DNA of 64,000 nucleotides from contig CM097885.1 of the NCBI GenBank assembly GCA_044892525.1, positions 23,746,001-23,810,000 of the forward strand, read 5' to 3'. Source of the stretch: Schmidtea polychroa (taxonomy: Eukaryota). This document shows, piece after piece, positions 7,031 to 63,484 of the stretch (the stretch's first letter is position 1; every line of letters starts with the position of its first letter). Both the position numbers and the translations under genes were made by a program. The notes beneath the pieces were generated by a model that did no database searches, was not told where the DNA came from, and worked only from the letters and a program-made list of their open reading frames with translations.

Positions 7031-7079
7031 ATATGTACTTTAATGACCCTGGTTTGTTAATTCAGTTTAATTATTCTTA

Positions 7080-39276: not shown

Positions 39277-42200
39277 TGTTGGGCTAGAAACCGTGGTAAT
39301 CAAAATTTTTGTAAATTTAAACTTTCTGTAAATTAATTAAAGGAAACCCTGTATTAACTTAAAATGAGGTAATCACCCAAATGTAAGGAAAATAAAGAAT
39401 AAAAGAGAGAAAAAATAATAAAATAAAACAAAAATTAAAACAAAAGTCACTAAAATAAAATAAATGATAAACAAGTTGCAAATAGACAAAAATACACAAC
39501 CATCACCAACAAGCAAAGAGAAAATAATTAGAACGAATAAAAATAAATATCAAAAGAACAAAATATTAATAAGAAAATAAATTATAATCAAGATAAACAA
39601 TAAATAAAAACAAAGAAAGAATAAAACACCAAATTACAAACAAAACTACCATCAGGATCCAACAAAAAAAAGAGGAAAATATGGAAATTAAATTATTTAA
39701 TAAATTATCAAAAGAAAAAGATAAATAACCTAGAAAGAGAAATTTAAAATAACAAAAATATGAAAAAACAATACTTCACACTGATTGAACGAAAATTACT
39801 ATATAAGGAAAACACTTGGTTGATTCCCTCAATTCTAACAAAACTCTATACAGATAAAATTATAAATTTTTTTAATGAATTCTAACAAAACTCTATACAG
39901 GGATCTAGTTCAATATCACTCCAATTAACCCAGTATTCAATTTGTATATCATATTACAACATTTTTCTCAGCATCTTATCATCTCTATCGGAAAGGAAAA
40001 ATGTAAATTTTCATTTATTATTAATTTTTTACAAATATTATGTTAATTTAATTGAATTTAAATATTATAATGATCATAAATTGTTCCTTCTTTTCTCCTC
40101 ACGATATGAGGTTCAACGACGATATTGTTCGGGGATTGTGAATGTGAGAAGCCAAATGATTGAGGAGAAGGAAAGCGTTTAGGCATGAGAGGGAGAGGTG
40201 GAAGGATTTTGAGCCAGGTTTCCTGATATTGAATCACATGACTTGAGTCGAGTAGAAATAGATATTGGCTGAATATTAGGGATCGCAGTATCACCAGCGA
40301 AGAAAATTCTCTACAAATATGATGAGGTAGAAATGAATCGTATGAATTGTGACAACTTAAAAATGGAATTACCCGAGAAAATGGAGAGCGTGAGATATGT
40401 TTTAGGCTGAGTAGTAATGATTGACAAATGAAGAATCGATTGTCATTGATGTAGAAAGGACTAAGAGGTATAATTTCCAATTTACGAAGAGTATGGTCGT
40501 TGAATGTCAAGATTGATTAGATTTTATTTTGATTACTCTTGAATGCTAGAGTGGGTTTGATTTTATTTAAACTTTGCGAATTAATTAGATTTATTATAAT
40601 TATTTATTTACCCGTTTGTGAGGATCGTTTGGGGATTGCTGACACTTGTGTCGGTAGTTACCAGATGATATTCACAGATGGCGAGACAAAGGTTATGACT
40701 TCCGTTTAGGAATGACTAAGTTATATGATAAAAAATTGAATATTCATCGAGTGGCAACTTTCCATGGTAGAAATGAACTCCAATTCGTGGGCTGGAACAA
40801 GAATAAACACTTCTAATTTTCGTCACAGTTACGATGAAAATCCGTTCAGTGCGTGAAATCACGATACTATGATCAATCTTAAAGCTTGTAGTCATCGGCA
40901 GTTACACACCTTAACATTAGCTGAGAGAGCTTCGATAGTTTTATCACGAATTATCATCCTAAAGTGTCCGATTTTCTTTCACTTTGATAGATCAAATTTT
41001 CCACGATAGACGGTTAACATCAACCGATACGAGATTCCCACCGTAATAGGATAGACCTTTGATTCGTCGCCTGTATTAAAACATCCGGTCTCTGAGATAA
41101 GAGGATACACGATATTCCACGACATCCATCTTGAGATATATACAATTACTGCTATTATAAACATCCTCATACAGGATGTCGACGATTTGTCATGATCAAT
41201 CTAATACACATGAACGAACATAGTAAGATTACGATGAAATTGACAAATCAACAGTCGGAATCAAGAACACCACTGAATCGGTCGTTTAGATTATTCTTAA
41301 GTTTTTCATGTTAATCTGTTTACTCGTCGGCGAGATTTCGATGCCACTGTGATGCGTGCCCCATCAATGATATAAACATACAATAGCACTATATCGACAA
41401 ATAATTTGGCCTGATTATTTTAATTAAATTCATGAGAAAAACATTTCTTCACTAAGATAAAATCGAGATGAGAACGAATAATTGTGAAAACTTAATATCA
41501 TAAGGAGACGATGATGCCCTATGTAAGGGAAGATATTGCAAAATTCCTAATCTAAAATAAAAAGTTTTTCTTTTCTTTCTCAGTTTTAATAATTTTTTGG
41601 AGTAATTAAAATATTAATCCATGGGGTGGTTAAGAAAATGATTTTCGTCACGAACAAAATTTGTAATTGAACATGAGAGAGTGAGTTGGAGTGGCTGATA
41701 GAGCTTTAAGTTTCATGGGCTATTTCCTAAGTCATGGTACTTTAAACAAGGGCCACTTATTCCAGCGAATAAATTTGTAATGTTAATAATAATGTAAAAG
41801 TGCTAAGTCAAATCTCACTACTGTTGAAACCAAACGAAATAGTTGAGAACCATTAAAACATATTAAAAAGCGGTCACATTCGACAGGAAAATAAATTTCG
41901 AAAAATTAAATGAGTGTTGAAACAAGGAGGATAATACAATGTTTGAGGTGTGATAGGAGTGTGTCAATCTATTTCGTATAGTTAAGATTTTATTTTTAAC
42001 TCATTTTTCCAGTATGTCGGAACCTAACTTGTCAATACGCGGCTCGAAACCCTGTTTTTCGTGCGCCGACAAGAATGCGGACATGCACAAGCTGAAAGAC
42101 CATATAGGGGCTCTGAAGAAGCGTATTGACACGCTGGAGCATACGTGGTTCTCCCCTCCACAAATGAAAGAGGCTAACATGAAAATCTTACGTCTCGAAC

Positions 42201-42723
42201 ATTGCCGGGATAGCCTATTGGAGGAAAGCAAATGCCAACGGCTCATGATCAAGGCCAAGTCAGAGGCCCTACATCAAATATACTCTGAATCCGAGTTAAA
42301 AAGGCGAGTCAAGGAGTTCCCAATAGCGGATAAGATGAATATTTTCCACATCCACTATCAAACGGATGAAATAACTTCATTAAAACCTTCTGGTTGTCAA
42401 GGCCATGGTCCCGACTTCCCGCCAATCGTCGCTTTTATCTTAGGCGGTGTACCACGTGCCAACGTTCCTCCGGAATCCACTCTTACTGAATCGTCACTCG
42501 TCGTATCTGTAGCACAATCAGATAGTCCAACAAAACTCAATTCCCGAAAAAGAAAACGTCCGACTCGTGCTGAGCGAACTCAACGACACCAAAGCAAAAT
42601 CACTGCACTAGAAGCCACGTTATTTGCGGCTCAGGAGGCTAACACAAAATCATCCAGTAGAAGTCTTATCGCACCACTCGCCACAGCTTCGTATCGAGTA
42701 ATCCCTTCGCAGCATCCGTGCTC

Positions 42724-43438
42724 AGTAGGGTATTGTGTGGACCCGGGAACAAAGACATATGACGTCATCGATGACGTCACAAAGACATATGANNNNNNNN
42801 NNNNNNNNNNNNNNNNNNNNNNNNNNNNNNNNNNNNNNNNNNNNNNNNNNNNNNNNNNNNNNNNNNNNNNNNNNNNNNNNNNNNNNNNNNNNNNNNNNNN
42901 NNNNNNNNNNNNNNNNNNNNNNNNNNNNNNNNNNNNNNNNNNNNNNNNNNNNNNNNNNNNNNNNNNNNNNNNNNNNNNNNNNNNNNNGTTGCGGTATTTT
43001 AAAATTTATATTACGTTGCGGTATTTTAAAATTTATATTACGTTGCGGTATTTTAAAATTTATATTACGTTGCGGTATTTTAAAATTTATATTACGTTGC
43101 GGTATTTTGAAATTTTAATTATTAAATATATTACGTTGCGGTATTTTGAAATTTTAATTATTAAATATATTACGTTGCGGTATTTTAAAAACTTATTTTG
43201 ATGGTTAAATAAAATAAAATTATTACACACAATACTCAGACAAAATATTCTGTTCCCCTATGGTCACACACACACAATGTATAAAAATATTATTTACACA
43301 CACGCAACAAGTTAGTGTTCTCATCGATATATTATTAATCTATATACTCCGAGTTTATCCGACAAAATATTCTGTCCCCCTATGGGTACTGCTAACAAGG
43401 GTACTGGTCGCGCTCAACAACTCGCAAGGGTATTATTA
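42724..43438 (+). repeat. Left terminal inverted repeat (about 700 bp or more, gapped), with a 27-bp tandem array at 42988-43190
   Basis: Reverse complement of 57810-58501 with a few indels. Repeat unit GTTGCGGTATTTTAAAATTTATATTAC. Confidence 0.92.
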
Positions 43439-43870
43439 NNNNNNNNNNNNNNNNNNNNNNNNNNNNNNNNNNNNNNNNNNNNNNNNNNNNNNNNNNNNNN
43501 NNNNNNNNNNNNNNNNNNNNNNNNNNNNNNNNNNNNNNNNNNNNNNNNNNNNNNNNNNNNNNNNNNNNNNNNNNNNNNNNNNNNNNNNNNNNNNNNNNNN
43601 NNNNNNNNNNNNNNNNNNNNNNNNNNNNNNNNNNNNGTAAATGTCACAAAGTTACTGTTAAAAAATATTCAAGACAAAACATTAACAAAGAAATTATACT
43701 TTAAATATACACTAAAATTTATTAACACACTGGGTAAAGGTGATAAAGGTAACTAACAAAACTTTAACATATTATTATTACACACAATGTATAAAAATTG
43801 TTCACAAAGTTACTGTTAAAAAATATTCAAGACAATATGACTAATACATTTATTAAATAATTTAAACACA

Positions 43871-46800
43871 TCATCGAAAATAATCATGTCCAAAATAATT
43901 ATCATCTGCTGGATCATGGAAATCATCTGTATCATCTGCTGAGATAGCTTCCGTTGAATCTATAAATATAACGGTGTCACCGCCCCTATAATGACCATAT
44001 GCCAAACTTTGATTTTTATCCACCCAATTTCGCTTATCATCTCTACATGTCAAGGCTCTTTTATTATTTTTAATACTAAAAAGTTGGTGATTTTTTGACG
44101 TTATTCTAAACTGAGGGACTGTGTATATTTTATCATTTAAATAACAATCTAGATACGACTGATGTGTTAGTCCAGTATCTTTCATACTTATCCCCTTAGC
44201 CTTCATACTTTCCTCATCACCCATCAAACTGTAACATTTAGGTCTCAAGAACACCCAATCTTTATATAATAACCCTTTATTCTCGTCTTTGAATTTACCA
44301 ATGACAGAATCAAGGTTCCTACTATATAAAGGATGATTTGGGTCATAATTCGAAGTATCTAATAATTGATCTCTAATCATCGCAGGTAAAAGAATGTCAA
44401 GACTACAATGTTTAATTTCCAAGAAGAAGGAATCTGTGTCTCCAGCAACGATATTAATTTCGCAGTTGAATTCGTCGCGATATTTTTGCAACTCTTCATA
44501 CTGCAGCTGGTACATCCTGAGTTTGGATAAATCAAGTACGGTTTGACCAATGTAACTAGGTCTATTCAAACATACTATGTCCTTCCTCAATAAAACCGAA
44601 ATCAAGTCATCATCGATTTTCGTGGATTTACGAAAAGTCGGTTTCGAACAGAATGTTAATAATCTCTGTGAAGAATTACACAGACGTAAATTAATACGTT
44701 TTTTAAGATTTTCAACAGTCTTGCCGTAAAGACTGTTGTTTAATAATTTATAAAAATTTTTATCGAGTTTATTTGTCGACGCTGCTCGTAACGCCGTATT
44801 TGTGTTAATATAATTTTTGAAAATTTTATCTTGTTTAAATTTAATTGCTCTATGTGTTTTTGATATTTTAACACCTAATTTAATAAATATTTGTAGAAGC
44901 CTCCAATGAAGAACGTAGTTCCTCTTGGGGCTGTGTGTAAGCAACAGCTTCTCTATTTTCGAACCCAGTACACACATCTTTTCAGCGGCAACGGGAAGAT
45001 CGTCCAGTTTGTCGTGAATTGACGTCGGTATTTCTAAATCCACTTCTATGGTATAACCATAATCAAGCAGATCTAAATCTACCGTTGTGCATTCAACAAT
45101 TATATTATTTAATAAATTATCATCAGTAACCCATTCAAAGTCACTGCAAGGTAATGGTTGACTTAAAGCCCAACCGTATAAATTATTTATATCTATGTAA
45201 AGCAAAGCGGTATCCGGGTCTGTTTTTACATAATGTTTATTTACAAAAGTTAGTCCGCCACGGATACCGCCCTCGAAAAAGTTATACATCTCCATATCGG
45301 TGAGGAGCTCAATTGGAGAGTTTAAAGTTAATAAGGCTGAATTCCAAGACATACCTGGAATCCCTAAGAAATTTAATGGCTCTAGTCGGTTATGAGCAAT
45401 GGACTTAGCTCTAAATTGCTGGAAAAAATCGGCTAAAAGGAAAACATCAAGTTTTAAATAAACCATCATGTAATCGAAAAGTGAAGTACATGAAGTTTCA
45501 ACCCAAATTCGCTGAGCTGTCTCATATTCAGCGGGAGTCACATCTTTCCAAATAGGAGGTAACTGATGAGTGTTATGCAAAACCTCTAATGAAGTTGCGG
45601 CATCATAAGGAAAAATTCCCTTTGCAGTTATTATTGTACCCTGAAATTCTGATTCGGTCAAGGGTAAAGATGATAAAGTTTTGACAGCATTATTTAAAGA
45701 CTCGCTGACAAATTGATAAGAGTCTATAAATTTAACAGTTAATGAGTCAATCCTAGCAAAAAGACTAAGGAATTTCTCGCTGGTTAAAGAAATACAACTA
45801 ATATTCCATGAATGATATTTTGAAAGGCCAAATTTCAAGATATGATGCAGATCATAACCCTTTAAATTATGAAATACTACAGGAAGGGTATGTCTAATTT
45901 GCCTCGACAGATTACAAGTTGTACAAGCGGCACCAAGATATAGACCGGTAAAATGATCATGGTCCCTAACTGGACTAACTAAAGGCTTATTGCACAAATA
46001 ACATGATGTGCTGTTTTCAAACATTAATTGTTGCTCATCTGTAATTATCATTTTCTTTTGATAATTTTTATAATAATAAGGAGTTACAATATATTTCCCT
46101 ATCATTTCAATTTCAGTAAGAAATTGATCGACACAATCTAAACCGGTGAACGACTTATAAATTTTTACGCCCGTGAAATTATTAATAAAAAGCATACCGG
46201 CAGAAATAGGCAGATGACGTTGAAAGTAGCGAGTGTCTTTAGGTAAGATAGCCTCAAAGTCAGCGTAAATAACAAAGGGAGGAGTAACTGTTTTACTCCA
46301 ATCAGTAAATTCTAAATATTTATTTTTAGGCAATGTGTACAAGGTAGTACCAAGCTGATTTTTATCGCAAAGACCCTTATGTCTATTAAAAGCGTCATCA
46401 TTCCTAAAACCGTTTAAACATCTAGGGCACCACTGACTACAAATCCTAACAGGAGTGATTGAACTATTCCTACAATTAAGAAATCTATTTAGGTCTGTGA
46501 TTCCAAGATAATGATAATTATCATTCTTTTCAATTAATAATAAATTGATAGGTATGGCTCCTACTATCTTACTCCTATATATTATATCAATAAAGGGATG
46601 TTTCATAACTGCATCTTCATCGGAAATGTCAATCAAAGCCCTTTCGTTATAAGTAAGAACATTAATACTATAACCCGGATTTTGTTGTTCAAATTTACTT
46701 ATATTTGATAGTTTCATCGGCATATCATTAGGATCAAATTTAATTTCAGAAAGATTGTAGGAATTAGGGCGATTTCTATATTGCCTATTTATACTATCAT

Positions 46801-47718
46801 ATTTAATAATTGACAAGAAACTATACAAAAAGCAGAAGTGGTCATTATTAACTACATTAACGAGACAGCTTAAGTTTCTTAAAGATTTTGGGGTTTCAAT
46901 AAAACTTCTACCACTTAACCGACTTATTTCAGCAAATTTAGTCAGAACAAAGCTTATGTATTCTATTTTATTGATAGTCCAATTACTACCTTTCTCATTA
47001 ATTTTAATTATTTTTTCATTTAAACGAGCAATACCTTCGTCAATGAATGTATCGCTCCAAACTCGGGCGGAATTCGAGATTACAAAAGATTGTAACTCAT
47101 CATCTTTTATAAATTCCACCTTTAGACAAAATTGAATTTTACATGATTTTAATTTATTTACATATAAATTTAATTTATTTATTAAAATGTCTGGTACAGA
47201 GACCGTTTTTAAATCTAAAGACGAAACGTCCATTTTTAATATAATATGATTATTATTTAAATCACTGGTGACATCTACGACACCATAACCTATTTGATTA
47301 TTATTATTATTATTACCATTATTATAATAAATATTACTACTACTATTATTATTATCAATTTCATCATCACTTATGTTGATTATTTCATCATCATCACTTA
47401 TGTTGATTATTTCAATAACTTTAGATTTTTTACTTGGTATTGAATTGATTTTTTCATTATTTTTTCTTTTATTCATATTAATTAGAATATTTATTTGATC
47501 ATTTAATTTATTTACTTGATCTTTTAGTTTAGTTATTTCGTTTATATCATTATTATTGGTGTTGTTAGTATTGTTGTTGGTGATATTATTATCATTATTG
47601 TTGATATTATTATTATTGTTGATATTATTATTGTTGTTGATATTATTAGTGTTGATATTATTATTAGTGTTGTTGATATTATTATTAGTGTTGTTGATAT
47701 TATTATTATTGTTGTTGA

Positions 47719-47749
<31 letters not shown>

Positions 47750-48425
47750 AAACGATTCATATAAGCTATAGAAAAGAGACTTCTTAGAAGGTTTAAATTG
47801 TTGGAGATGGAGTCTATGCTTATTATAAAATTCCTTATACGTTATAACTTCAATAACCTCACATTTAGGGCATAGGATGTAGGTGACACCGTTATATTTG
47901 TGACTATAATATCTTTCCATTATATCATCGCAGTCATTATGATATTGACTATTACAAAAGTTTTGGTATTTCAAACCTATGAAAATATTTTTATCATAAA
48001 ATGTTTAAAAAATAATAAGATAATAATCATTTTTAAAGTTTAAGATATTTTTCGTAAGATATTATTCAAAATTGACTTTTAAATAGTATCTTATAAGAAA
48101 TTATATATAATTTAATTCATTTTCATAAATAAATAATTCATTTTCTAAAATAGATTTTCATAAATAATATATAAAAGTTATTAATTATAATGTTCAAAAT
48201 CATCATCATATTTCATAAATCTTCTTTATAAAATCATCATAAATAAATAAATCTTCTTTTCATGAATAAATCTTTTCATAAATCTTCCTTTCAAAATTAT
48301 CATAAATCTTCTTTTCATGAATAAATCTTCTTTTCATAAATCTTCCTTTCAAAATAAGTAAATCTTCTTTTCATGAATAAATCTTCTTTTCATAAGTTTC
48401 TTCTTTTAATTATTATTATTATTAA

Positions 48426-48456
<31 letters not shown>

Positions 48457-48802
48457 ATTGTTTAAAAAAAAAAAAAAAAAAAAAACTTAAAAACTTATTA
48501 CAATAAATAAATACTTACATTTTCGTCCTTTCGAAAGAAATTTTCCAGCATCGGCACCATCAGAAGTATTTATTACATTTCCATCTAAAAGCATAATAAA
48601 AATAATAATGATAATAAGAGTAAACTATTACCATTTATTCTATTCATGTCTACATCTTGTCCGTCGATATTCATTTTAATTTGTTGATTAGTACCTAATA
48701 ATCATATTAAAAATAATAAAATAATAAAATAATAAATTTACCATTAATTCCTCCTACGATCTTTCCGTCAACTCTTTGAATATTGTTGTTGTTGTTGTTC
48801 AT
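43871..48802 (-). CDS. polB: Protein-primed family B DNA polymerase; predicted join(48742-48802, 48632-48694, 48519-48584, 43871-47976), 1431 aa
   Basis: Exo motifs YADFE, FHNLKGYD and YLKLDV. Pol motifs DINNLYG, KLLNNSLYGK and GDTDS. EndoVII-like Zn insert. The main exon is certain; the three upstream exons are predicted from phase-compatible GT-AG sites. Confidence 0.93.
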
Positions 48803-49232
48803 GTTGTTAAATATTGGTAATAGATTTTTAAAAGTGATGAAAAAATGAAAGTGTAGACTATATAAGAGAGATATTACAGGTTTTATTAACCGACCAATGA
48901 AAATAGAGATAGGATAGGAAAAGACACTACATGTTTGTTTATACAAACCATGATGAAATAATGACCTTTACATGTCTTTATTACTCAGTGCTTTGTTACT
49001 TTGCACTGTGCATGCACTGAACATGTAATAGTATTACATAATATTTTTAAACATAAAATTTAACAAATAATATATTAAACATAAAATAATAATATATTAA
49101 ACATAAAATAATAATATTTAACAAATAATAATAATATTTAACAAATAATAATAATAATATTTAACAAATAATAATAATATTTAACAAATAATTAAAATAG
49201 TCAACAAATAAAAATCATACAGTATACATTTA

Positions 49233-49644
49233 TTAACCATCAAATTTTTTATACAACAACCATGCCAAACAGTGTTGACCACATGTTTGAGTCAATGGAT
49301 TTTGAAACATAGTTTTATTATATACAATAGGTTTCCCAATTGTTTGAAGTTTTGATATCAACAAAGCAGGATAATAGAAACCCATAGGATCGAATACGAA
49401 TATATTACTAGGTTTCACATATATAGCTATCCAATGTTCTCCACCAAGATGAGACGAATGAGTATTGACGATTATGGCTTGATTATTGCTCAAATAAGGA
49501 ATTTTATCGAGAGGGAAAACACCTACAAATTCATTTCCTAATATTTGTTTTCCAATTCGATTAACCTGAACAGAACTACTTTAATAAAATTAAACAGTAT
49601 CAAAAAACTTACTCCATGACAACTTTTTGTGTTTCTGTATACAT
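49233..49644 (-). CDS. Adenain-like cysteine maturation protease, join(49613-49644, 49233-49575), 124 aa
   Basis: GVFPLD..VNT..GEHW..FD..Q..CG (His/Asp/Cys triad). A 37-nt GTAAGT..AG intron restores MYTETQKVVMDSVQVNRIG.., and its ATG directly follows the capsid stop (TAAATG). Confidence 0.9.
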
Positions 49645-50868
49645 TTATACTAGCACGGTTCTATTTGCAGTAATTTGAACTTCATTTTCAAATACTCCAT
49701 ATATTATAACATGTACCGGTTCAGTGATAGCTTTTGCAAACTTAATATCCAGTCGTAAATTCCCGTTTTGTGGTAGTTGACTCTGATTTAAATCAAAATC
49801 AGGGGCTAAAACAAATGTGAAAAATGGATATTTGCTTTTAAATTCTTCTAGAGTAATTCCACAATTCAAGTTTTTATCTAAGTAACCCAGATTTCTAACA
49901 ATACTCTGCATATATGTCGCACAGTAATTATCGCTTTCGAAATCTTGAGTATATGTTTCTCTATAATCAGTATTTTTCGACAAAGTCAATGAAGTAACAC
50001 CAAAATTTTTGAAAATTGAGCTGGAAGCAGTATAAGATCCATTATATTGCGTTTCACTTTGAAATGTTACCAGAATAAAATTAGGCATTCTTCTGTCACC
50101 AAATATTTGTTCTTTATAGAATGATGAAGCACCTTTAGCAATAGCAAATTGTACAATTTCCTTTGTTTTTAATGGATAAATTGCATGTTTTGAATTAAGA
50201 CCCAATTGATGACCAGCTAATACTGACGGGTCTACTCGAACTCTTCTCACCAATAATTTTGCATCAACTAATTGACATATTGGTGCACCAGTTGCACTAG
50301 TAAGAGTTAGTGCAGAATCGGACCTTTTCAATCTAATGTGTACATTAACTCCTGGTAGCAAATATTTCGGTTGATCCATAAAATCGAGTTGTAATGATGA
50401 GCACATAGTGAATGATTTTGAGCCTTTAACCCACTTTTTTCTTTCATCATCTGTTGCAGCATAACCCATAGGTGTAAGACAGGTATTTTTAGTATCAGAA
50501 TTGTAATTTAAAATAGTTTCTATCAAAGCCTTGTGAATGAATGTATTATTTCCGCCCTCAATCTTGATATTATTAAATCCCAACACTGCATCTTTAAATA
50601 GAGTATGAAACAGGAAATTGTTCGGTATTACATCTGCATTGGCATCCAAAACTTTTCTATCTTTATCTACAACCTTGATCTGGACAGTCAATAAAGTATC
50701 GTTCAAATCTAAATATTCAGTTTGCGAACCATTAATATAAAACTCGATATCATTTCTACTATCAGTAATTGAATTCATAGGAAAAACTTCCTCAAATGCC
50801 CCAAATTCTATTACAGCCTGGGGCGACGGTCTATCAAATATACATAATTCAGATTTACCACAAATCAT
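49645..50868 (-). CDS. Major capsid protein (double jelly-roll, hexon-like), 407 aa
   Basis: SELCIFD..IEFYING..YLDLNDTLL..NNFLFHTLF, typical of Maverick MCPs, in the expected position. ATGA overlap with the upstream gene. Confidence 0.9.
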   Translation of the reverse strand: MICGKSELCIFDRPSPQAVIEFGAFEEVFPMNSITDSRNDIEFYINGSQTEYLDLNDTLLTVQIKVVDKDRKVLDANADVIPNNFLFHTLFKDAVLGFNNIKIEGGNNTFIHKALIETILNYNSDTKNTCLTPMGYAATDDERKKWVKGSKSFTMCSSLQLDFMDQPKYLLPGVNVHIRLKRSDSALTLTSATGAPICQLVDAKLLVRRVRVDPSVLAGHQLGLNSKHAIYPLKTKEIVQFAIAKGASSFYKEQIFGDRRMPNFILVTFQSETQYNGSYTASSSIFKNFGVTSLTLSKNTDYRETYTQDFESDNYCATYMQSIVRNLGYLDKNLNCGITLEEFKSKYPFFTFVLAPDFDLNQSQLPQNGNLRLDIKFAKAITEPVHVIIYGVFENEVQITANRTVLV

Positions 50869-51227
50869 TTTGCAAATATAGTTCCATGTCCTTTCATTCG
50901 TTTGTTTATACGTGATATTCCATGTCTTTTACGTTTTGGAGCTGGGGCTGGAGGCGTATCTTTTTGAAACATACCTGCAACCCCTGGTAAAACTTTCCCT
51001 AATTCAGCTAAAGCATTTGTTTTTAGGGATGGTAATATTTTCTGTTCATTCATAATAACGTCTTTTGCAGTTTTCATACCAAAACTACCAATACGTTTAA
51101 GAATAGGCAATGCAAATCTACCAATTGTTCTCAACCATCCCGATCCGTACTGTTTACCAATAAAATATGGTAATTCGCCACCAGATTGGCTATCACTATA
51201 CATACTAATAATATCAGAATTTGCCAT
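50865..51227 (-). CDS. Small basic core-like virion protein, 120 aa
   Basis: Q-x-G-x-G motif (QYGSGW) followed by the amphipathic LRTIGRFALPILKRIG and a basic tail. Lies between the penton and hexon genes. Confidence 0.7.
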   Translation of the reverse strand: MANSDIISMYSDSQSGGELPYFIGKQYGSGWLRTIGRFALPILKRIGSFGMKTAKDVIMNEQKILPSLKTNALAELGKVLPGVAGMFQKDTPPAPAPKRKRHGISRINKRMKGHGTIFAK

Positions 51228-52287
51228 CTACTTTACGAAAATGTAGTGTCAAATGAGTTTTTGAGTCTTTTGGAAAGTTTATAAGTTTTCCACTATCGTC
51301 ACAAATATTTATTTCTATATTGTTTATACATGAGCTTGAAATTGGTAAATACATGGGATTATCTATATTTATATTGACAACTTCATCATGTTCATATTTT
51401 CCAATCCATACCGATTTCAAAAGAGGAACACTGGAATCACCAACAATTATGGGTTCGATAATGTTAGTATATATGAACATTTGTTGATGATGTTCTAGTA
51501 TTCTTGGTTTGCGTATACCAGTCGATTTTTCTCGATATTTTTGCCTATCTAATCCAAGTGAATTTGCCAAATTTTTATCAAATGTAACTTCGCAAATGTC
51601 ATCATTCAAACTGAAGGTAAACATCAAATCTTTCACAATTTCCAAATTTTTAAATATGTGTGAACAATTGAACTTTAAATATTTAAGTAAATCATCAAGT
51701 TTATCAAAATATAATTCATCAGCAAAGGTAAATGATTCTTCAACTTCATCATTATACGACACAGATATTTTGATTTCTTCTTTCATTACACTGTTTGCTT
51801 CAAATAGATTAAAACGTAATAAATACTCGGTCTCCGTAACAATATATTTCAACTTATTGCAACCCATTCGTTTGGCATCTTCAATAGTTTCGAATGTTAT
51901 TGTAAACGGTTTAAAATCACAACTGATATTTAATCCATCCTTGTAAAACATATAGCAATGCGAATCTAATATTTGATTCGGAATATGATATGTTTTATCA
52001 TAATTACTAATAACAAAGATACCGCTACATGTTTTCACAATATTCCTTCTGAAATCAATCTTACAATGACTATAAAATGGGAATGTGTTGTACACAAATG
52101 TAAAATCTTGCAGTGCAACTTCCCAGTCCCCATTTAAAGAAATCGGATTCTGGAGATTGACCATAGATTTACTGGCTTGATTGTCTGGATGAATTAATGG
52201 GCAACTATTGCTTGGTAAAATAGTATAAAAATTCACTTTACTAGATCCTTTTCTGATATCCATGATGGGTTTTGATAACCATGCCAT
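51214..52287 (-). CDS. Minor capsid protein (penton-like), up to 357 aa
   Basis: FYTILPSNS..N..S..V.LQNPI.L.GDWEVAL and MFIYTNII..VGDS.VPLL..YLPI..IEINI.D. Confidence 0.87.
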   Translation of the reverse strand: MAWLSKPIMDIRKGSSKVNFYTILPSNSCPLIHPDNQASKSMVNLQNPISLNGDWEVALQDFTFVYNTFPFYSHCKIDFRRNIVKTCSGIFVISNYDKTYHIPNQILDSHCYMFYKDGLNISCDFKPFTITFETIEDAKRMGCNKLKYIVTETEYLLRFNLFEANSVMKEEIKISVSYNDEVEESFTFADELYFDKLDDLLKYLKFNCSHIFKNLEIVKDLMFTFSLNDDICEVTFDKNLANSLGLDRQKYREKSTGIRKPRILEHHQQMFIYTNIIEPIIVGDSSVPLLKSVWIGKYEHDEVVNINIDNPMYLPISSSCINNIEINICDDSGKLINFPKDSKTHLTLHFRKVDGKF

Positions 52288-53352
52288 TTGACATAGTATT
52301 GTTTATCCTTGCCGACCTTTTTAGTTTTCAATATCTTTTGAATTCTAAATACTTTTGGAGGAGGAATAACTTGTAATTCTTGCTCATAAAATTTTCCTTG
52401 TACAATATTGTTATCATAATCACTGATGACATACATTACAGGATTCTGACTAGTATTTATTTTTGAAATTACAAAGACTTCATCACTCCAATTTGTATCG
52501 AAATTTTTAATAAATGGTGATGCACTAATTTTACTAATTCTAACATGGTCACCGACTTTATATTTAGGTTTTGCAATTTTTACAGATTTCTTAGAAGTCA
52601 ATGTTTTTGATGTAATATCAACCGGTCTTAATCCATTAAGTCCTCGATGTGATGAATGATTATAACTTGTTATTATTTTCGGTAAAGCATTTACCCATTT
52701 TTTATTACCTTGATGCACGAATAATTTCTTTAATCTATCTCTCAATGTTCTGTTAAATCTTTCAACATGAGCAGCTTTGTATTGAGAATGTACCGAGTAA
52801 TGGTTTATTTTCAATTTATTGAGGATTTGCTTGACTTTACTNNNNNNNNNNNNNNNNNNNNNNNNNNNNNNNNNNNNNNNNNNNNNNNNNNNNNNNNNNN
52901 NNNNNNNNNNNNNNNNNNNNNNNNNNNNNNNNNNNNNNNNNNNNNNNNNNNNNNNNNNNNNNNNNNNNNNNNNNNNNNNNNNTATTAGGATGTCCATCTT
53001 TAAATAAAATATTAATTGCCTTGGACATTTCATCTGAAGATTTTGCCTTGACGGGTATTGCTCGGGCAAACCGACTGAATACATCAATACATGTTAAAAT
53101 ATATTTATTCCCATTGTTAATTTTCGAATAAGGTATCATCTCCATCAAATCCATTTGCCATAAATCATTTATTCCATATGTTTTATATACTCTTGTTGGG
53201 AATCGTTTCTGCATTGGTTTGTTCAAACTGTACGCAAGCTGGTCTGATAACCACTTCTGGGTTTCCTTTTTCGAATTCGGAACTCTTTTGTTTAATTTTG
53301 CCACTCCACCGAAACCGGCTTCGTCTTCGGGGTTCGTCCAAATCTTCTCCAT
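52233..53352 (-). CDS. int: Retroviral-like DDE integrase with C-terminal chromodomain (spans the N-gap 52842-52982)
   Basis: WQMDL..YILTCIDVFSR..HVERFNRTLR..YNHS.H and YYVKWHGY..SWI. The frame change across the gap is a gap-size artefact. Confidence 0.92.
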
Positions 53353-53413
53353 TACAACAAGAAGATTTAATATTAAATTTAATGTCTGGTAATGAAGGAT
53401 TAGCACCCATTGT

Positions 53414-53908
53414 TTATGATCGACTTCCTATTATTCCACCTAATAATGATATTGCTAAAGGTATCAATGCACCGATAAATCCCCCTTGTTGTTTATATAT
53501 AATTTTTCTCATTTGTTGACGATTTTTATTATTTACTAATGATAGCAAAGGTTTCCTATGTTTACTCAATAATTGCTTTTTAGATTTACTGATTTTAATC
53601 TTGCCTTTGACTACTTTAAGTATAATATCGAGTAAATCATCGACAACATAATTTGGAAAAGATTGTAAAATACTGTTTCTTTTCATACTGGGTGCTTTTA
53701 ACAATGTATTGAAAAACGGGAAACTCCGATGATTTTTAACAACTTTTACTTTCTTAGTGGTTTTACTTTTAGGTTTAGGTTTAGGATTTTTCGAAATAAG
53801 ATTCATTGCAGGAAAATTTTCTGTAATAAGTTCTTTAGATGGAGTATAACTAGTTGTTGGTGGAACTTTTGGTTGTTTTTTACTCGATATCCTTGTTTTT
53901 GAAAACAT
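53414..53908 (-). CDS. Lys-rich protein with adenovirus pX-like C-terminus, 164 aa
   Basis: Ends KQQGGFIGALIPLAISLLGGII, resembling pX (RGGILPLLIPLIAAAIG) with an xGG cleavage-type site. Confidence 0.7.
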   Translation of the reverse strand: MFSKTRISSKKQPKVPPTTSYTPSKELITENFPAMNLISKNPKPKPKSKTTKKVKVVKNHRSFPFFNTLLKAPSMKRNSILQSFPNYVVDDLLDIILKVVKGKIKISKSKKQLLSKHRKPLLSLVNNKNRQQMRKIIYKQQGGFIGALIPLAISLLGGIIGSRS

Positions 53909-53921
53909 GATTTATATGTTT

Positions 53922-54560
53922 TCAATTTTGTTTTGAACTTTGTTTATAAACCATGGCACCTTTTGGGTTGAAAATATCTGTTTTTACCCGTATATCATCA
54001 GGACATTGTTGTGTGAAATCGAGAAATATATACCCATGAGGTATTTTCGTAGCATCTTGAAATGCATTGATAAGAAAATTACGGTTATTAGGGTATGCTT
54101 GTCGTCCAAGAAAATCAATGACAGTTGCATCTCTAGGATTCTTGAAAATAACTAGATATTGTACATTTAAATTACGTGTTCGATGTGCCCCACCTTGATG
54201 AAATAAATTTTGTGTTATGAAAATAACTGTTACACCAACATGTCTGCTGATTTTTGTGAATAAATTATTAAAATCCTTTTCTTTATTGGCTTCTTGATAC
54301 AAATCATCGATAATGATTACATCATCTTTCTTCAAACGACTTGACCAGTTTTTATCAAAACCCTTTACTATTTTCATGTTTTTCAATTGACAGAAACTTG
54401 ATTGTGTCAATCCATGTTCTTCATCGGCGCCCCTATGCCAATAAATATTGTTGAATTTTGTTTTGAACAAATTTGATTTTAGTAATTTACAAACAAATAA
54501 TGTTTTTCCGCTACCACTTGGACCAACGATTTGGTATACTGCATCATTTCGTAATTCCAT
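53922..54560 (-). CDS. A32/FtsK-like genome-packaging ATPase, 212 aa
   Basis: Walker A GPSGSGKT, Walker B IIIDD, SRH arginine finger and ITQNLF. Confidence 0.93.
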   Translation of the reverse strand: MELRNDAVYQIVGPSGSGKTLFVCKLLKSNLFKTKFNNIYWHRGADEEHGLTQSSFCQLKNMKIVKGFDKNWSSRLKKDDVIIIDDLYQEANKEKDFNNLFTKISRHVGVTVIFITQNLFHQGGAHRTRNLNVQYLVIFKNPRDATVIDFLGRQAYPNNRNFLINAFQDATKIPHGYIFLDFTQQCPDDIRVKTDIFNPKGAMVYKQSSKQN

Positions 54561-54572
54561 TTTTTAAATTTA

Positions 54573-54639
54573 AACTATATATAATTATTGTTTATATTGA
54601 TAATTTAAATGAACTCCTTTTTAAAATAACTATATATAA
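54573..54639. promoter_or_regulatory. Divergent promoter with two AACTATATATAA boxes
   Basis: Identical 12-mers at 54573-54584 and 54628-54639 in the 107-bp gap between the head-to-head ATPase and TBP-like genes. Confidence 0.55.
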
Positions 54640-54667
54640 CAGAGTTTTTTATAATTATTTCATTAAA

Positions 54668-55132
54668 ATGCTTTCAAATATAAATTACAGGGCAAAAGCT
54701 GATGTATCAAAAATGGTATTTCCAATGGGGAAACCACAACAACTCATCAATAGAAGTAAAAAATATCCAATAATATATTTCAAAACTGGTAAATGTAGAA
54801 TTATGGGGTGTAAGGAAATAATCAAAGCTAGTGAATATAATGTTTATGATTTAGAAATACAATCGATAACCATAACTTCCGATATAGGTTTTTCTTGTAA
54901 TTTAAATAAATTGGCTAAATTAATACCATGCTTTTACGAACCAGAATTATTTCCAGCTTTGAGATATATAAAATATAACCCTATGTGTGTAAATATATTC
55001 GCTAGCGGTAAGATAGTAATTCTTGGAATAAAAAATATTGATTACAAATGTATAGTTGATAATATCATATCTGAAATTAAATCAATAATTGAAGGAAATG
55101 AATTTTTAGATTTTTTATTATCACTTAATTAA
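54668..55132 (+). CDS. Divergent TATA-binding protein (TBP) homologue, 154 aa
   Basis: Repeat 2 FYEPELFPALRY..NPMCVNIFASGKIVILGIK resembles canonical SYEPELFPGLIY..KPKIVLLIFVSGKIVLTGAK. Repeat 1 IYFKTGKCRIMGCK resembles LIFASGKMVVTGAK. Confidence 0.85.
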   Translation: MLSNINYRAKADVSKMVFPMGKPQQLINRSKKYPIIYFKTGKCRIMGCKEIIKASEYNVYDLEIQSITITSDIGFSCNLNKLAKLIPCFYEPELFPALRYIKYNPMCVNIFASGKIVILGIKNIDYKCIVDNIISEIKSIIEGNEFLDFLLSLN

Positions 55133-55253
55133 TTATTTATCATTACAAATTCAATGCAATTGAAATGCATGATTCTGATTGGTCGAAATCTAATTGGCTG
55201 ATGATTATTTATAACAAAATGTTTTCGGTTTAGTTGTCATTTATTCAACAAAA

Positions 55254-55661
55254 ATGTACAACATACAAAGTTCCGCAATCACCTCAATGAAAGAGCATGC
55301 AAATTATGGTAATTTCAAATTTTTATTATTACATTAATATATATATTTTACAGATGAATATCAATCAATTATCCTGCAAAGATTATGCTTCTATTATCCA
55401 GAATTAAATGAAATTCTACAAGATAGAGATAAAGCTATCATTCCGGATTTGGTATACAACCAAACACGAATCTGGATATTTGATATAATAAACACCTTTC
55501 TATGGGATATCAAGATAGGAAGGGGGATGAAAGAAATGAAACCAGAGGCTCCTTGCATTTTCGGATGTAGCTGTTGCAATTTCCGTTATCAACAATATGT
55601 TGAATGGTGTTTGGTGAAGACTCTGAGAAATCACCACTCGAGTCAGATTGTATCAAAATAA
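55254..55661 (+). CDS. Unknown Cys-rich protein, join(55254-55308, 55354-55661), 120 aa
   Basis: A 45-nt GT..TTTTACAG intron contains an in-frame stop. Spliced product MYNIQ..ANYDEYQS..PCIFGCSCCNF. Confidence 0.75.
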
Positions 55662-55793
55662 ATTTTTATGTTGAATTGTTTTGTTTTTGTAAATCGAAAT
55701 AATAGAAATAATAATAATAATAGTAATAGAAATAGTAATAATAATATAAGTAATAATAGTAATAAAAAACAATATTTATAATAAAAACATTAA

Positions 55794-56411
55794 TGCAACA
55801 TTAATGCAAATGACATGCAATTTAAACAAAGACATACAGCAATCTGATTGGTTGATAAACAATAGTCATAGGTATAAAAACCCTGTACCATTTCATTTTA
55901 ATCATAATTCACGATGACAAAGAAAATTTCAAGCACTGAAAAGCCAAAAGTTGTTCCAGAACTTGTAAAACCTGTTCAAATGTTCCACAACTATAAAATG
56001 TATTTTTTAAAAGAAGAAATCAATATGAAATTGGCGTCGCCGATCAAGCTAATTCCAACTAAATTTCAATTCTTATCCGGCACGCTTTCAATGATAGATA
56101 TTAAATCTATTGATGAGGTTTTCAAACGGTTGAATACGAATCTATCTTGTAATCAACATGCCTGGTTCAACAACAGATATGCAAGATTTTATGATTCCTT
56201 TGATGAAATCGGTTTCAAAGAAAACGAAAATTGGTATATAACAATTGCAATCCAAGGATATAAAGTAGATAATAATGATGTGTATTCTCCAATTTGGAAA
56301 ATTATGTCTGCTAGACTTTCACAACTATTTTAATGTTATATTTAATAAATGTATTAGTCATATTTGTTTTTTCTCTTTATTAATTGCAACATTAATGCAA
56401 ATGACATGCAA
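55794..56411 (+). promoter_or_regulatory. Duplicated 27-bp promoter module containing the octamer ATGCAAAT
   Basis: TGCAACATTAATGCAAATGACATGCAA is identical at 55794-55820 and 56385-56411, each upstream of a gene. Confidence 0.7.
55914..56333 (+). CDS. Unknown 139-aa protein (possible OB-fold ssDNA-binding protein)
   Basis: Clean ATG ORF with its own GATTGG+TATAAA promoter and AATAAA. The fold guess is weak. Confidence 0.65.
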   Translation: MTKKISSTEKPKVVPELVKPVQMFHNYKMYFLKEEINMKLASPIKLIPTKFQFLSGTLSMIDIKSIDEVFKRLNTNLSCNQHAWFNNRYARFYDSFDEIGFKENENWYITIAIQGYKVDNNDVYSPIWKIMSARLSQLF

Positions 56412-56460
56412 ATTTAACAAAGAAAATCTATAAACAAACTTATAATATAGTTTTAAAGTG

Positions 56461-56786
56461 ATGAAAATGACTGCAGAAAAAGGTTAACATGATTAATTAA
56501 ATACTGAATTATTTATTATTTAGAATTATTAATCAACTTTTTGTTGGAAAAATTAGCAGAAATATCTGGTGTAAAAATTGAGGATATATTATCTGTTACA
56601 AATGCATTAAATATCGGCTGGGTAGTTGAGAGTCAAGATTCAAGATTTGAAGAAACCGATACTCAAGAAATTGATGACGAAATCTATGAACCTAAAGATA
56701 ATATTACGAATGATTGTATTGATCATGTCGTTGAAAATATAATGAAATGTGGAGATGACGATTGCGAATGTGTTAATAAATTTTAA
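56461..56786 (+). CDS. Unknown acidic protein, join(56461-56482, 56524-56786), 94 aa
   Basis: A 41-nt GT..TTATTTAG intron supplies an ATG in frame: MKMTAEKELLINF..EETDTQEIDDE..KCGDDDCEC. Confidence 0.7.
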
Positions 56787-56830
56787 AATTGAATTATTTT
56801 CATTTAAATATACTATTAAAAACAATAACA

Positions 56831-57359
56831 TTAATTTTTATTCATATATCTACAGAAAATATACATTATAACAACTCCAGTTGTAAGTTTTATAAAGTTT
56901 TTCATTTTTCTTTTGATTTCATCAGTTTCTTTAAAATTGCAGGCCAGTTTATTTAATACACCCCATCCGCCATTGGCTTCTATCCATGGGGTAAACTTGG
57001 ACTTGATTATCTAGAAATGAATATTATTAAAATATAGATTATAAAAGAAATCTTACTTCTAAAGACCACTGATAATAATGTTCTGAGTCATGTTGACCTT
57101 TTGCAATGATTATCTTCATGTAGGTGAATCCTACAATTATCCTTGTCCATTTCATGTCTTCATCGAAAAGACACTGAAATATTCTATTGAAGTAATACTT
57201 CTTGGTTTCCAGGGATTCCATCTCCATCATCTGCTGATAATCGATATGTTCACCTTCAATGATTTGTTCGGTTCGATTGATCAGGAAATTGAGGCTGTCG
57301 ACTATATTCGCGGTGACAATTCCGTTTAGAACATTTTCCATAAAATTTGGTTGCGACAT
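56831..57359 (-). CDS. Bcl-2-family protein, join(57057-57359, 56831-57010), 160 aa
   Basis: BH1-like LFDEDMKWTRIIVGF. A 46-nt GTAAGA..TTCTAG intron brings in BH2 WIEANGGW and the hydrophobic tail LTTGVVIMYIFC followed by RYMNKN. Confidence 0.85.
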
Positions 57360-57809
57360 TTCTAAATTAATTTAAAATATAATGTTTTATTTATACTAAT
57401 ACCATATGATTTTGATTGGTTGATAGACTATAAATGTAAAAGAAAGGTTTTGATTTGATACACCATAAAAACTGTATTGCTAATTATTATTATAACGAGT
57501 GTGTGCTAACACAATACTATAAATTTTATAATATTCGACTATGTTTTTTGTTAACTNNNNNNNNNNNNNNNNNNNNNNNNNNNNNNNNNNNNNNNNNNNN
57601 NNNNNNNNNNNNNNNNNNNNNNNNNNNNNNNNNNNNNNNNNNNNNNNNNNNNNNNNNNNNNNNNNNNNNNNNNNNNNNNNNNNNNNNNNNNNNNNNNNNN
57701 NNNNNNNNNNNNNNNNNNNNNNNNNNNNNNNNNNNNNNNNNNNNNNNNNNNNNNNNNNNNNNNNNNNNNNNNNNNNNNNNNNNNNNNNNNNNNNNNNNNN
57801 NNNNNNNNN

Positions 57810-58501
57810 TAATAATACCCTTGCGAGTTGTTGAGCGCGACCAGTACCCTTGTTAGCAGTATCCCATAGGGGGGACAAAATATTTTGTCGGATAAACTCG
57901 GAGTATATAGATTAATAATATATCGATGAGAACACTAACTTGTTGCGTGTGTGGACATTAATAATATTTTTATACATTGTGTGTGTGACCATAGGGGAAC
58001 AGAATATTTTGTCTGAGTATTGTGTGTAATAATTTTATTTTATTTAACCATCAAAATAAGTTTTTAAAATACCGCAACGTAATATATTTAATAATTAAAA
58101 TTTCAAAATACCGCAACGTAATATATTTTTAAAATACCGCAACGTAATATAAATTTTAAAATACCGCAACGTAATATAAATTTTAAAATACCGCAACGTA
58201 ATATAAATTTTAAAATACCGCAACGTAATATAAATTTTAAAATACCGCAACGTAATATAAATTTTAAAATACCGCAACNNNNNNNNNNNNNNNNNNNNNN
58301 NNNNNNNNNNNNNNNNNNNNNNNNNNNNNNNNNNNNNNNNNNNNNNNNNNNNNNNNNNNNNNNNNNNNNNNNNNNNNNNNNNNNNNNNNNNNNNNNNNNN
58401 NNNNNNNNNNCCGGGGGGTGGGGGGTATGACGTCATATGTCTTTGTGACGTCATCGATGACGTCATATGTCTTTGTTCCCGGGTCCACACAATACCCTAC
58501 T
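57810..58501 (-). repeat. Right terminal inverted repeat (gapped)
   Basis: Mirrors the left TIR, with a 27-bp array at ~58069-58278, a G-tract at 58411-58425 and TGACGTCA sites. Confidence 0.92.
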
Positions 58502-59078
58502 GTGCTCCAATATGATCCGCATCTATAGACAGATATTGATGCGATGATAAAAGAAGGAGAGTTGATGTGAAAAGATCCGATTCCGTACCTCGAGAGATGA
58601 ACTATCGTTCCAGCCAAAACGTATCGGTCATTGTTTAGTATAGACACTGTACAAGACTTTATATGATCTATCGGTGTTAATTCTTGTCGTATGCAATAGA
58701 ATTCGTTGAAAAGGGCCTCGTGTTCTCACATTTTCATACGAAATTATGTAGAAAGGTGTTATTTTCTAAATCCGTCATTATGTCGAAAAACCAAGAATTC
58801 TGAAGTCGTCTCACTGAACCAGAGACAGACCGTGGTTAGAAAGACGAGTAGCGTAGATGTAAGTCCTTCTATCGATATTCAGGAACCCGTACAGCAAATA
58901 TTGTGAATAGTAGTCATAATGCAGGGGCTAACCTGTTCGGAAGTTCCAACCCGAGTGTGCAGCACCAACATGACATATCATCATGGGCACACATGAGGGA
59001 GATCATTGTCAAGTCATGACGGACATTTACTGAATTCGACAGTGAATAAATAACATTCCCCTAAGTCACCAGCAAAAG

Positions 59079-59610
59079 TATCTATCACTCATGGGTTTCG
59101 CCGAATTAGATATTATAAAAGACTGAAATTGTCCATCTTTTCAAATTCTACATCTATGCAGAATTGAATTTTAACATATCCCATTTCGGATATAACAGAA
59201 TTTAATTTAGTTATAAATGGTGCAGGGATAATTAATTTTTTTAAATTTAAAGAAACTATTTCAACAATTATAACCACCATATTGAACAATATTTTCGTCA
59301 TTTGATGAATAAACATCTTCATCATCGGAAATTACGAATAGTTTCGATGGTTGTGGACAAACAGTAACCATTCGTCTTTTATTTAGACTAATAAATGCAA
59401 AAAGATTCTTCTTTGTACAAGAAAATTGATTTAAATGTGCACAGTGTTGACTATAAAAGTCAGAAAAAGTTATATTTTGGAAGCTCTTACAAATGGGACA
59501 TATAAAGAAGGTGACTCGTTTATTCACATGTCGATAGTATTTTTTCATTATTTTATGGCAATTGCGGTCATCATGGACTTTACATTGACAATAATTCGGG
59601 TAAAGATTAC
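59079..59610 (-). pseudogene. polB: N-terminal fragment of the older Polinton polB
   Basis: YPNYC..HDD..C..IMKKYY..CPIC..H..HL.QF and KIQFC..EF..QSFIISNSA align to the intact PolB N-terminus. Confidence 0.8.
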
Positions 59611-59981
59611 CTTAATTATAAAATACCATTAAAATTATTCAAAGGTTTTTTAAATATCATAAAATAAAAGAAATTCGATATATAATTGTAATTATACACA
59701 AAATATTATTATTATTACTAAATAATATTAAAGAAATCTGATTAAATTAATGTTTACACAAAACTTTGCCAATTATTATTATTTATTAGAAGAAATATTT
59801 ACAAAATTTATTACTAAAAATATTTACTAAATTAAAAATTATATTAAATTTCCTTTAAATCATAAAAAGTAATCAATACTTACATTGTAAATTTTCATTT
59901 CGATTTATTGACATATAGACATAATTTTTCTCTTTATTCGTATTACCTAAATTACTAATTATATCCTGCAACAAAGACGAC

Positions 59982-60416
59982 TTGCTCGTATACTGCCAAC
60001 ATTTGGAAAATCTTCACAGTGATTTCATTGAAAGATTCCAGGACATTTTGAAATTGGAAATACCAAACTGGGTGTTAGATCCTTTTTCAAATGTCAACAT
60101 TGCAATATCACCCCAGCTGGAGGAAGAACTTATAGAGCTGACAACGAACGAGGAAATAAAATTCAAATTCAAAAATGGCTACCAACAATTTTGGCTACAA
60201 AAGTCAATTCCGCAGTTGTACCCTGTACGATTTTTGATAGCATTCCCATCGTCATATTTGTGTGAACGTGGATTTAGCGCTGTGACAACGCTGTTTACTA
60301 AAATGAGAAATCATTTGCAAGTTACCAAACGCGGCGACTTACGACTGTTTTTGAGTAAAATCGAACTTGATATCAACAAACTTGTTAAAAATCATCAAAT
60401 TCAACCATCTCATTAG
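59982..60416 (+). pseudogene. C-terminal fragment of a Buster/ZBED5-type hAT transposase
   Basis: ERFQD..WVLDPF..FW..FPSSYLCERGFS..DLRL.LS. Confidence 0.8.
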
Positions 60417-63115: not shown

Positions 63116-63484
63116 TTAAGGTGACCAACTATTTTTTGTTCAAAAAGAGTACACTTTGCAAGTAATTCATAGGTGAAAAAAAGAAGAAAAACTTTATTTT
63201 CTTTTAAAAACATATTTTTCGTCAGAGTGGATTTTTTTTGCTAAATGAGGATGTTCGTCTAATAATAATATTATAAATTTGCATTTTAATTTCTTTCACT
63301 GGTAAAGATTTCTAGTTTAGAATGTAAGTTTAAACACCAGAACCGACTAATATAGCATACTATAACTAAATGAACTAAAGTAATGAAATTGTGGTTTTTA
63401 AGTTTTAGGAGTGTATGAAAAAATTGGGCGCTGAAAAATAATTGATTTTCAAAAGGTGCGGTAAAAGAAATAAGTTTGATAATC

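Follow-up and report, generated by a model that had tools for sequence, protein, structure and literature searches.

Where does the polymerase gene of this Maverick begin? The question is raised by a pPolB main exon (43871..47976, minus strand) that matches PF03175 and runs uninterrupted for 1367 codons past a split codon; positions here are those of the window, the whole 64,000-nucleotide stretch that was analyzed. A first-pass annotation had proposed that the gene starts farther upstream. Judged from the DNA itself, this Maverick polB very probably does start in three tiny upstream exons. The best explanation, to which we give a probability of about 0.8, is that promoter-like motifs at 48943-48859 drive host transcription of polB and that three introns are then spliced out, which would give the polymerase its start codon, an N-terminal peptide and its first putative zinc ligand.

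The Element That Carries polB

The gene lies in a complete Polinton/Maverick of 15.8 kb (42724..58501, no strand assigned), which is delimited by terminal inverted repeats with AG...CT ends and by a 6-bp target-site duplication, an identical hexamer at 42718-42723 and 58502-58507. The inverted-repeat arms (∼42724-43640 and 57600-58501) are 94-99% alike outside of N, and N gaps hide part of them. Pfam identifies the pPolB (PF03175, E 5.3e-29), an A32-type packaging ATPase (PF04665, E 1.8e-7) and an adenovirus-like protease (PF00770, E 1.6e-6), all above cut-off. The rve integrase gene is split by an N gap; the piece before the gap matches PF00665 (E 1e-6) and the piece after it matches rve_3 and chromo, each of these matches falling under the curated cut-off because the gap cuts the gene. 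The frame at 49645-50928 resembles a double jelly-roll capsid, with an Atlas feature score of 0.97 to a cluster in which 65% of the members carry PF21738; the call comes from a lead-level method, its recognition value lies under the usual mark, and Pfam gave no match for this frame. The ORF at 51214-52302 is by position the candidate for the minor capsid gene, and it too had no Pfam match. The family is abundant, with 1551 contigs from one run mapping to a 1.3-kb stretch.

We note several other features of the window. A TBP-like gene (54467-55132, plus strand; PF00352, E 1.4e-14) stands head-to-head with the packaging ATPase. Elsewhere there are a 752-codon open frame at 14410-16668 (plus strand) with no Pfam match, a Tc1-like element whose ends are inverted over 84 nt and whose transposase is split, and a fragment of the Tc5/CENP-B type, the last two at 11977-13439 and 61280-61825. 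The Tc1- and Tc5-type transposase fragments suggest that the host is an animal.

Predicted Exons and Introns Upstream of the Main Exon

The first-pass annotation had described exons of 61, 63 and 66 nt separated by two 47-nt GT-AG introns, and the coordinates, frames and phases of this arrangement hold. On the minus strand, the coding part of predicted exon 1 (48742..48802, 61 nt) starts with an ATG and is stop-free only in the frame of that ATG. It is followed by intron 1 (48695..48741, 47 nt, GC 0.06), exon 2 (48632..48694, 63 nt, with in-frame ATGs at 48674 and 48647), intron 2 (48585..48631, 47 nt, GC 0.17) and exon 3 (48519..48584, 66 nt, without an in-frame ATG). Both 47-nt introns are of the GT-AG type. 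Intron 3 (47977..48518, 542 nt, GC 0.13) has a GTAAGT donor and the acceptor TTTCATAG and leads into the main exon. The three leader exons total 190 nt, and therefore all three introns are in phase 1. Exons 2 and 3, symmetric at phase 1-1 and with lengths divisible by 3, are each stop-free in one of three frames, which is the frame that the chain requires. The GC content of the leader exons is 0.29-0.35, compared with 0.06-0.17 for the introns. The further proposal that the donor at 48518 is phase-compatible with the acceptor at 47977 is borne out by the phase-1 fit; 48518 is the only GT[AG]AG donor within 1.25 kb above this acceptor, which leaves no alternative donor of that type for intron 3. 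The ends, base composition and phase of the predicted introns agree with U2-type spliceosomal introns; no clear branch-point consensus was found.

Could such a chain be a chance pattern in AT-rich, low-complexity DNA? In favor of chance, the region has a GC content of 20%, and a blind scan with a filter similar to ours, set to find AT-rich GT-AG segments that are short and show a GC contrast, returned 6 rows from the 42.7 kb that lie outside the element. In the 13.9-kb element interior the same scan gave five rows, of which two are introns 1 and 2 and one is an antisense false positive inside polB. Against chance, an open chain of ATG-exon-intron-exon-intron-exon was obtained in none of 2000 dinucleotide shuffles with the last donor held fixed; the test was run at three GC cut-offs, and the count was 0/2000 even without a GC filter. 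The relic copy, the homologue cysteine and the related loci described below agree with the chain independently, and we give a chance origin almost no credence.

Short GT-AG segments are also seen in other genes of the element. A Bcl-2-like gene lies in two pieces (57359-57057 and 57010-56834, minus strand) around a 46-nt phase-0 GT-AG segment (57056-57011); the first piece matches PF00452 (E 8e-4, below cut-off), and the second holds a BH2-like motif and then a hydrophobic tail. A small gene at 55254-55661 (plus strand), with no Pfam match, has a predicted 55-nt first exon and a 45-nt phase-1 GT-AG intron (55309-55353). A 41-nt intron whose GTTAAC donor is weaker may precede a small acidic frame at 56461-56783 (plus strand). 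The protease frame (49644-49233, minus strand) has no ATG near its start, and a short ATG frame is followed by a GTAAGT donor at 49612. Joining this donor to an acceptor at 49576, across a 37-nt intron, would keep the frame; joining it to one at 49566 (47 nt) would not. The protease may be a second core gene that is spliced. The occurrence of 45-46-nt GT-AG segments in other genes of the element supports a spliced polB.

Upstream of exon 1, a motif scan found promoter-like motifs at 48859..48943 (minus strand), namely TATA-like boxes at 48943 (TATAAAC) and 48864 and a reversed CCAAT at 48898. The position of exon 1 just below these motifs, with its ATG the first to be met, bears on a variant of the spliced gene in which the leader is variable: translation would often start in exon 2, or the symmetric exons would be skipped, making exon 1 optional within a set of isoforms. 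The symmetry and lengths of exons 2 and 3 and the two in-frame ATGs of exon 2 are what such a variant would use, and leader exons with their own ATGs recur in the relic exon beside the main intron and in the related loci L010-L012 (below). Exon 3 has no in-frame ATG, so that intron 2 at least must be removed, and the placement of exon 1 speaks for the first ATG. We regard the variable leader as unlikely, and note that variable starts and exon skipping are compatible with the main spliced-gene model.

The sequence also predicts what unspliced transcripts would encode. Retention of intron 1 ends translation after 31 codons, and read-through into intron 3 meets a stop 9 codons past the split codon. 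Each of the three intron lengths leaves a remainder of 2 when divided by 3. Regulated retention has a precedent in the third intron of the Drosophila P element. These stops and lengths, together with a conserved cysteine that requires a splice, would suit a regulated switch in which retention in most cells yields short peptides and the full polymerase appears solely in cells that remove the introns. Such stops are, however, expected from any AT-rich intron, and the short introns in the accessory genes of this element and in the polB of its relatives fit ordinary intron gain; a switch of this kind is, in our estimate, quite unlikely.

The predicted leader peptide is 63 residues long, N/D/G-rich and of low complexity, and it has no counterpart among the best 150 of 1471 homologues. 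An (I/V)DG motif is visible by eye in exons 1 and 2, and exon 3 has SDG. The first-pass annotation had read these as loose repeats, a reading that does not gain statistical support: the DNA similarity of exons 1 and 2 has p=0.06 and no other exon pair reaches significance, so we do not treat (I/V)DG as a structural repeat. Introns 1 and 2 are similar to one another at p=0.005, yet both are of low complexity.

A Conserved Cysteine Codon Completed by the Last Predicted Splice

The main exon begins with a Cys/His module (47747..47976, minus strand) that was delineated from homologue alignments and contains the internal ATG 47920. The module is 76 residues long, is distinct from the terminal-protein fold, and follows the pattern of a C-x6-C-x4-H-x2-C half, completed by splicing, and then a C-x2-C...H-x2-H half; from this residue pattern it probably binds zinc. 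Intron 3 interrupts the codon of the first conserved cysteine. In the unspliced DNA the split codon reads as glycine, and when it is joined to the last base of exon 3, which begins the codon, it reads as cysteine, six residues ahead of the next one.

A homologue search with main-exon residues 1-458 as the query gave 1471 proteins at E up to 0.001, and we kept the best 150. Among these 150, 25 carry the module, and the C-x4-H-x-C half-site is found in 10 of the 25. All 10 half-site homologues have a Cys 4-6 residues ahead of the half-site, where the background frequency of Cys is 0.028. In nine of these 10 full-module homologues 2-10 residues precede the first Cys, and in the tenth there are 30. 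That polB of the window obtains the conserved first Cys only across intron 3 supports the spliced-gene model. Homologues that show this Cys contiguously may be intronless, so that intron 3 would not be universal in the clade.

These alignments also bear on a shorter protein. In this alternative PolB begins at ATG 47920, and the three small exons form a tiny gene of their own or a leader with no coding link. All of the 7 aligned rows share the Met at 47920, and the module-bearing homologues P0005, P0006, P0010 and P0048 are called from the equivalent Met. A PolB starting at 47920 is plausible because several homologues, among the best 150 of 1471, have the second half of the module only. Against it, C-x4-H-x-D-C is preserved within the 19 codons preceding 47920 in the intact copy and in the relic alike, the split codon yields exactly the missing cysteine, and the small exons have neither a stop codon of their own nor a 3′ exon before the main exon. 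We judge a start at 47920 very improbable. The earlier claim that the stretch upstream of this ATG is coding finds good support in the homologue cysteines, the relic and the related loci.

A model of a homologous module (pLDDT 75) depicts a helix, a hairpin and a second helix. Fold searches with it gave nothing significant; the top Foldseek rows were C2H2 proteins at E about 1, and the best Z was 2.7. The absence of a significant match is no demonstration of a new fold. Pfam gave no match for the module, and as the sole query it retrieved no locus in viral contigs and no useful Atlas match.

The Predicted Intron Position in a Relic Copy

A second, frameshifted and truncated polB copy was located by tblastn and profile search at 59078..59610 (minus strand), where a Cys/His module 42% identical to that of the intact copy is followed by broken terminal-protein fragments. 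The first-pass annotation had pointed to an AG|GT in this relic and to a Cys/His stretch upstream of its first ATG, and both are present: the AG|GT falls at 59611/59610, and the acceptor position matches that of the intact copy. Above it lies a predicted intron of 273 nt (59611..59883, minus strand, GC 0.13), which shares its codon and phase with intron 3. Its donor, AAT|GTAAGT at 59883, has the same donor sequence as intron 3 and is the sole GT[AG]AG in 490 nt. The donor, phase and acceptor are common to the relic and the intact copy, and therefore the intron position predates their split.

Above the relic donor is an open exon of 63 nt (59884..59946, minus strand, phase 1-1) with its own ATG. 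At the DNA level it resembles none of the intact copy's leader exons (p 0.18-0.64), which suggests that the leader sequence, unlike the intron position, was not kept between the two lineages. A transposase-like fragment at 59925-60416 (plus strand), presumably of the hAT type and without a Pfam match, abuts and overlaps the top of this exon, and any further relic exons would have been lost because of this overlap.

Related Loci and Their Place in a Tree

A locus search with a three-sequence alignment returned nine viral-contig and 15 metagenome-contig loci. The three closest, the metagenome loci L010, L011 and L012 (37-40% identity), are near-copies of each other and represent one lineage. Their polB models contain AT-rich GT-AG segments of 42-46 nt, 11 of 11 in phase 1; two predicted introns fall in a leader made up of short exons rich in N/Q, and one or two more lie within the conserved region. 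Four of the five internal 42-nt segments contain an in-frame stop, and all five interrupt an otherwise colinear match; one leader intron of L010 (45 nt) and one internal intron of L011 (42 nt) are open in frame. Each leader exon of L010 and L012 has an ATG; in L011 the first leader exon has none and the second has one. The Cys/His module is absent from these loci, so homology between their leader introns and those of the window is not a given. By eye, two leader exon-intron units look like tandem copies in L010 (348-489) and in L011 (890-1033).

The other 21 loci have 25-33% identity, and their best match is stop-free in 20 cases. An upstream Met in the open frame is present in 14 of the 21 and absent in seven, for which upstream exons are possible. 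After shorter matches had been dropped, 84 rows entered a quick tree: the window, the three intron-bearing loci, 17 of the remaining 21 and 63 of the 150 proteins. One clade of 41 rows (SH-aLRT 97) has the window, L010-L012 and 16 of the 18 module-bearing rows, and none of the 17 continuous-frame loci.

Neither near-identical nor spliced forms of the protein turned up in word-index searches at lengths of 757-2410, 68-219 and 220-2000 residues. The window contains three more broken polB copies of 49-69% identity (38024-39280, minus strand; 63476-63999, plus strand; 7055-7417, minus strand). The first of these, judged by match lengths, has no 42-nt insert at the two internal intron positions of L010.

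Domain Order of the Predicted PolB

The first-pass annotation had held that the upstream exons extend the presumed terminal-protein region, and here we part from it. A model of the first 458 residues contains a confident alpha/beta domain at about residues 233-349, so the terminal-protein fold starts ∼230 residues into the main exon. The terminal-protein (D1)-like domain (46928..47278, minus strand) matches the PolIV little finger: model residues 241-349 align to 4IR1 with a Z of 8.6 and an rmsd of 2.5 over 92 residues, the top seven structure matches are Y-family polymerases, and a Gly-Ser loop lies between helix 2 and the last strand. The best viral matches are to adintovirus and MELD-virus proteins. 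Between the Cys/His module and this fold runs a linker of ∼150 residues (47279..47746, minus strand), asparagine-rich, of low complexity and with a basic KRK patch, where pLDDT is under 50 at residues 83-139 and 170-226. We therefore reject the leader exons as part of the D1 fold, with the module and the linker intervening; in the model, what they extend is the separate Cys/His module, ∼230 residues ahead of the terminal protein.

Candidate OTU-like Cys/His motifs were seen by eye near main-exon residues 381 and 488. An OTU fold was not among the structure matches listed for the model, which covers residues up to 458. A weak match to Endonuclease_7 (HNH-like; E 2.7e-4, below cut-off) lies in PolB at 46040-45908 (minus strand, residues 656-699). 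A glycine-rich motif, Q-x-G-(G/Y/x)-G, is found in the PolB linker at 47296-47282 (minus strand), just before the terminal protein, and also in homologues; motifs of this type occur in two small frames at 50865-51227 and 53414-53911 (both minus strand) as well, and exon 1 has I-V-G-G at 48760-48749 (minus strand). The Q-x-G-(G/Y/x)-G motifs resemble adenovirus protease sites, so that the leader and the Cys/His module may be released together as one separate piece.

Sequencing-Run Contigs and Copy Variation

Contigs from four runs, covering 47760-49040, contained no splice joints at the predicted sites, which is no evidence either way: none of the 14 listed runs is on record as RNA, 48396-48497 and 48587-48740 were skipped as repeats, and run X2 gave no cover. 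One contig of run X1 (47760-48061) crosses the acceptor at 47977 unspliced, and this run may be DNA. Four substitutions are listed among copies, three of them in exons and all three synonymous, including one in exon 3 at 48553. Two of the three lie above ATG 47920, a weak signal, since each has a probability of about 0.33 by chance. The sole exon indel among copies is of 3 nt and lies inside a trinucleotide run.

Discussion

Taken as a spliced gene, polB would comprise four exons transcribed in the host nucleus, from which the host spliceosome would remove three phase-1 introns. Splicing would place an ATG and a 63-residue peptide before the main exon and complete the first cysteine codon of the N-terminal Cys/His module. 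The product would then read, in order, leader, Cys/His module, linker, terminal protein, OTU-like domain, exonuclease and polymerase. We suggest that the microexons mainly supply the start codon and that the leader peptide is dispensable and unconserved; the layout would have been inherited within one pPolB clade, and the leader probably grew via tandem duplication of short exon-plus-intron units.

A broader reading can be built upon this, in which one animal Polinton clade has ceded control of its polymerase to the host spliceosome. The tandemly duplicated, phase-1-only leader would act as a gate, such that a polymerase whose N-terminal zinc site is complete would arise only in splicing cells, and its 5′ introns would help a long viral transcript to pass host surveillance of intron-free RNA. 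Introns are described, in the available part of a study on the human HUSH complex, as protecting transcripts from silencing (PMC7618375). We consider this broader reading unlikely.

The spliced-gene model itself has practical consequences. Maverick core genes are annotated as plain frames, a practice that would overlook the true N-terminus of these polymerases or truncate it at an internal Met. An intron in a conserved cysteine codon across divergent copies would mean that the element depends on host nuclear splicing, which bears on its host range and on whether such elements can still pass from host to host like viruses. With regard to intron gain, every polB intron modeled here is in phase 1. 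A junction that exists only in transcripts would provide a simple activity assay, and the locus points to an uncharacterized Cys/His module ahead of the terminal protein.

The element resembles other Polintons/Mavericks, as the adintoviruses with their pfam03175 PolB are described in the available text of PMC8502044, in its inverted repeats, 6-bp duplication, pPolB and rve integrase. The likeness extends to the packaging ATPase, adenain-type protease, capsid-like gene and Bcl-2-like cargo. In the accessible portions of the reports, the genes of intact vertebrate Mavericks are intronless (PMC8097293), and in a nematode Maverick the core genes are intronless and only cargo genes have introns (10.1101/2022.07.12.499685). 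In contrast, polB of the window is predicted to need three splices and not to be one intron-free pPolB frame, intronless core genes being a described Maverick trait and not a defining criterion. We found no spliced Maverick polB in the portions at hand of PMC8502044, 10.1101/2023.08.22.554363, PMC12220804, PMC6431247, 10.1101/809541, 10.1101/2024.03.25.586562 and PMC2646287. Our literature search, which found no host-type introns in an animal Maverick polB, had Repbase, subscription papers and supplements (including the maps of PMC8502044) outside its scope, and these may describe them.

Among pPolB proteins, the closest description is that of TP-vOTU-EXO-PALM polymerases (PMC11071308), which, in the part available, uses 4IR1 as the comparison structure for the terminal-protein domain; the D1 fold of the window likewise matches the PolIV little finger and has the Gly-Ser loop. 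Relative to that description, the window polB adds a Cys/His module, a long linker and a predicted spliced leader ahead of the terminal protein. Sections 6 and 7 of PMC11071308 do not mention the module, linker or leader, and "intron" and "splic" occur 0 times in the text available. Spliceosomal introns inside Polinton-like elements have a parallel in the maverick-polinton-like proviruses of dinoflagellates, whose introners, according to the accessible text, were mostly gained after integration (10.1101/2025.03.18.643946). Introners are mobile copies, whereas the intron position in the window is common to divergent copies.

In adenovirus E2B, a short upstream exon supplies the start codon. The DNA polymerase and pTP of this region are expressed from spliced mRNA, as the available parts of PMC9499273 and PMC7070027 describe, so that related protein-primed replication proteins are produced there from spliced messages, much as we propose for polB. 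The two systems differ in that adenovirus has a separate pTP and polymerase and long alternative introns, whereas the window has one fused gene with host-sized microintrons in an integrated element.
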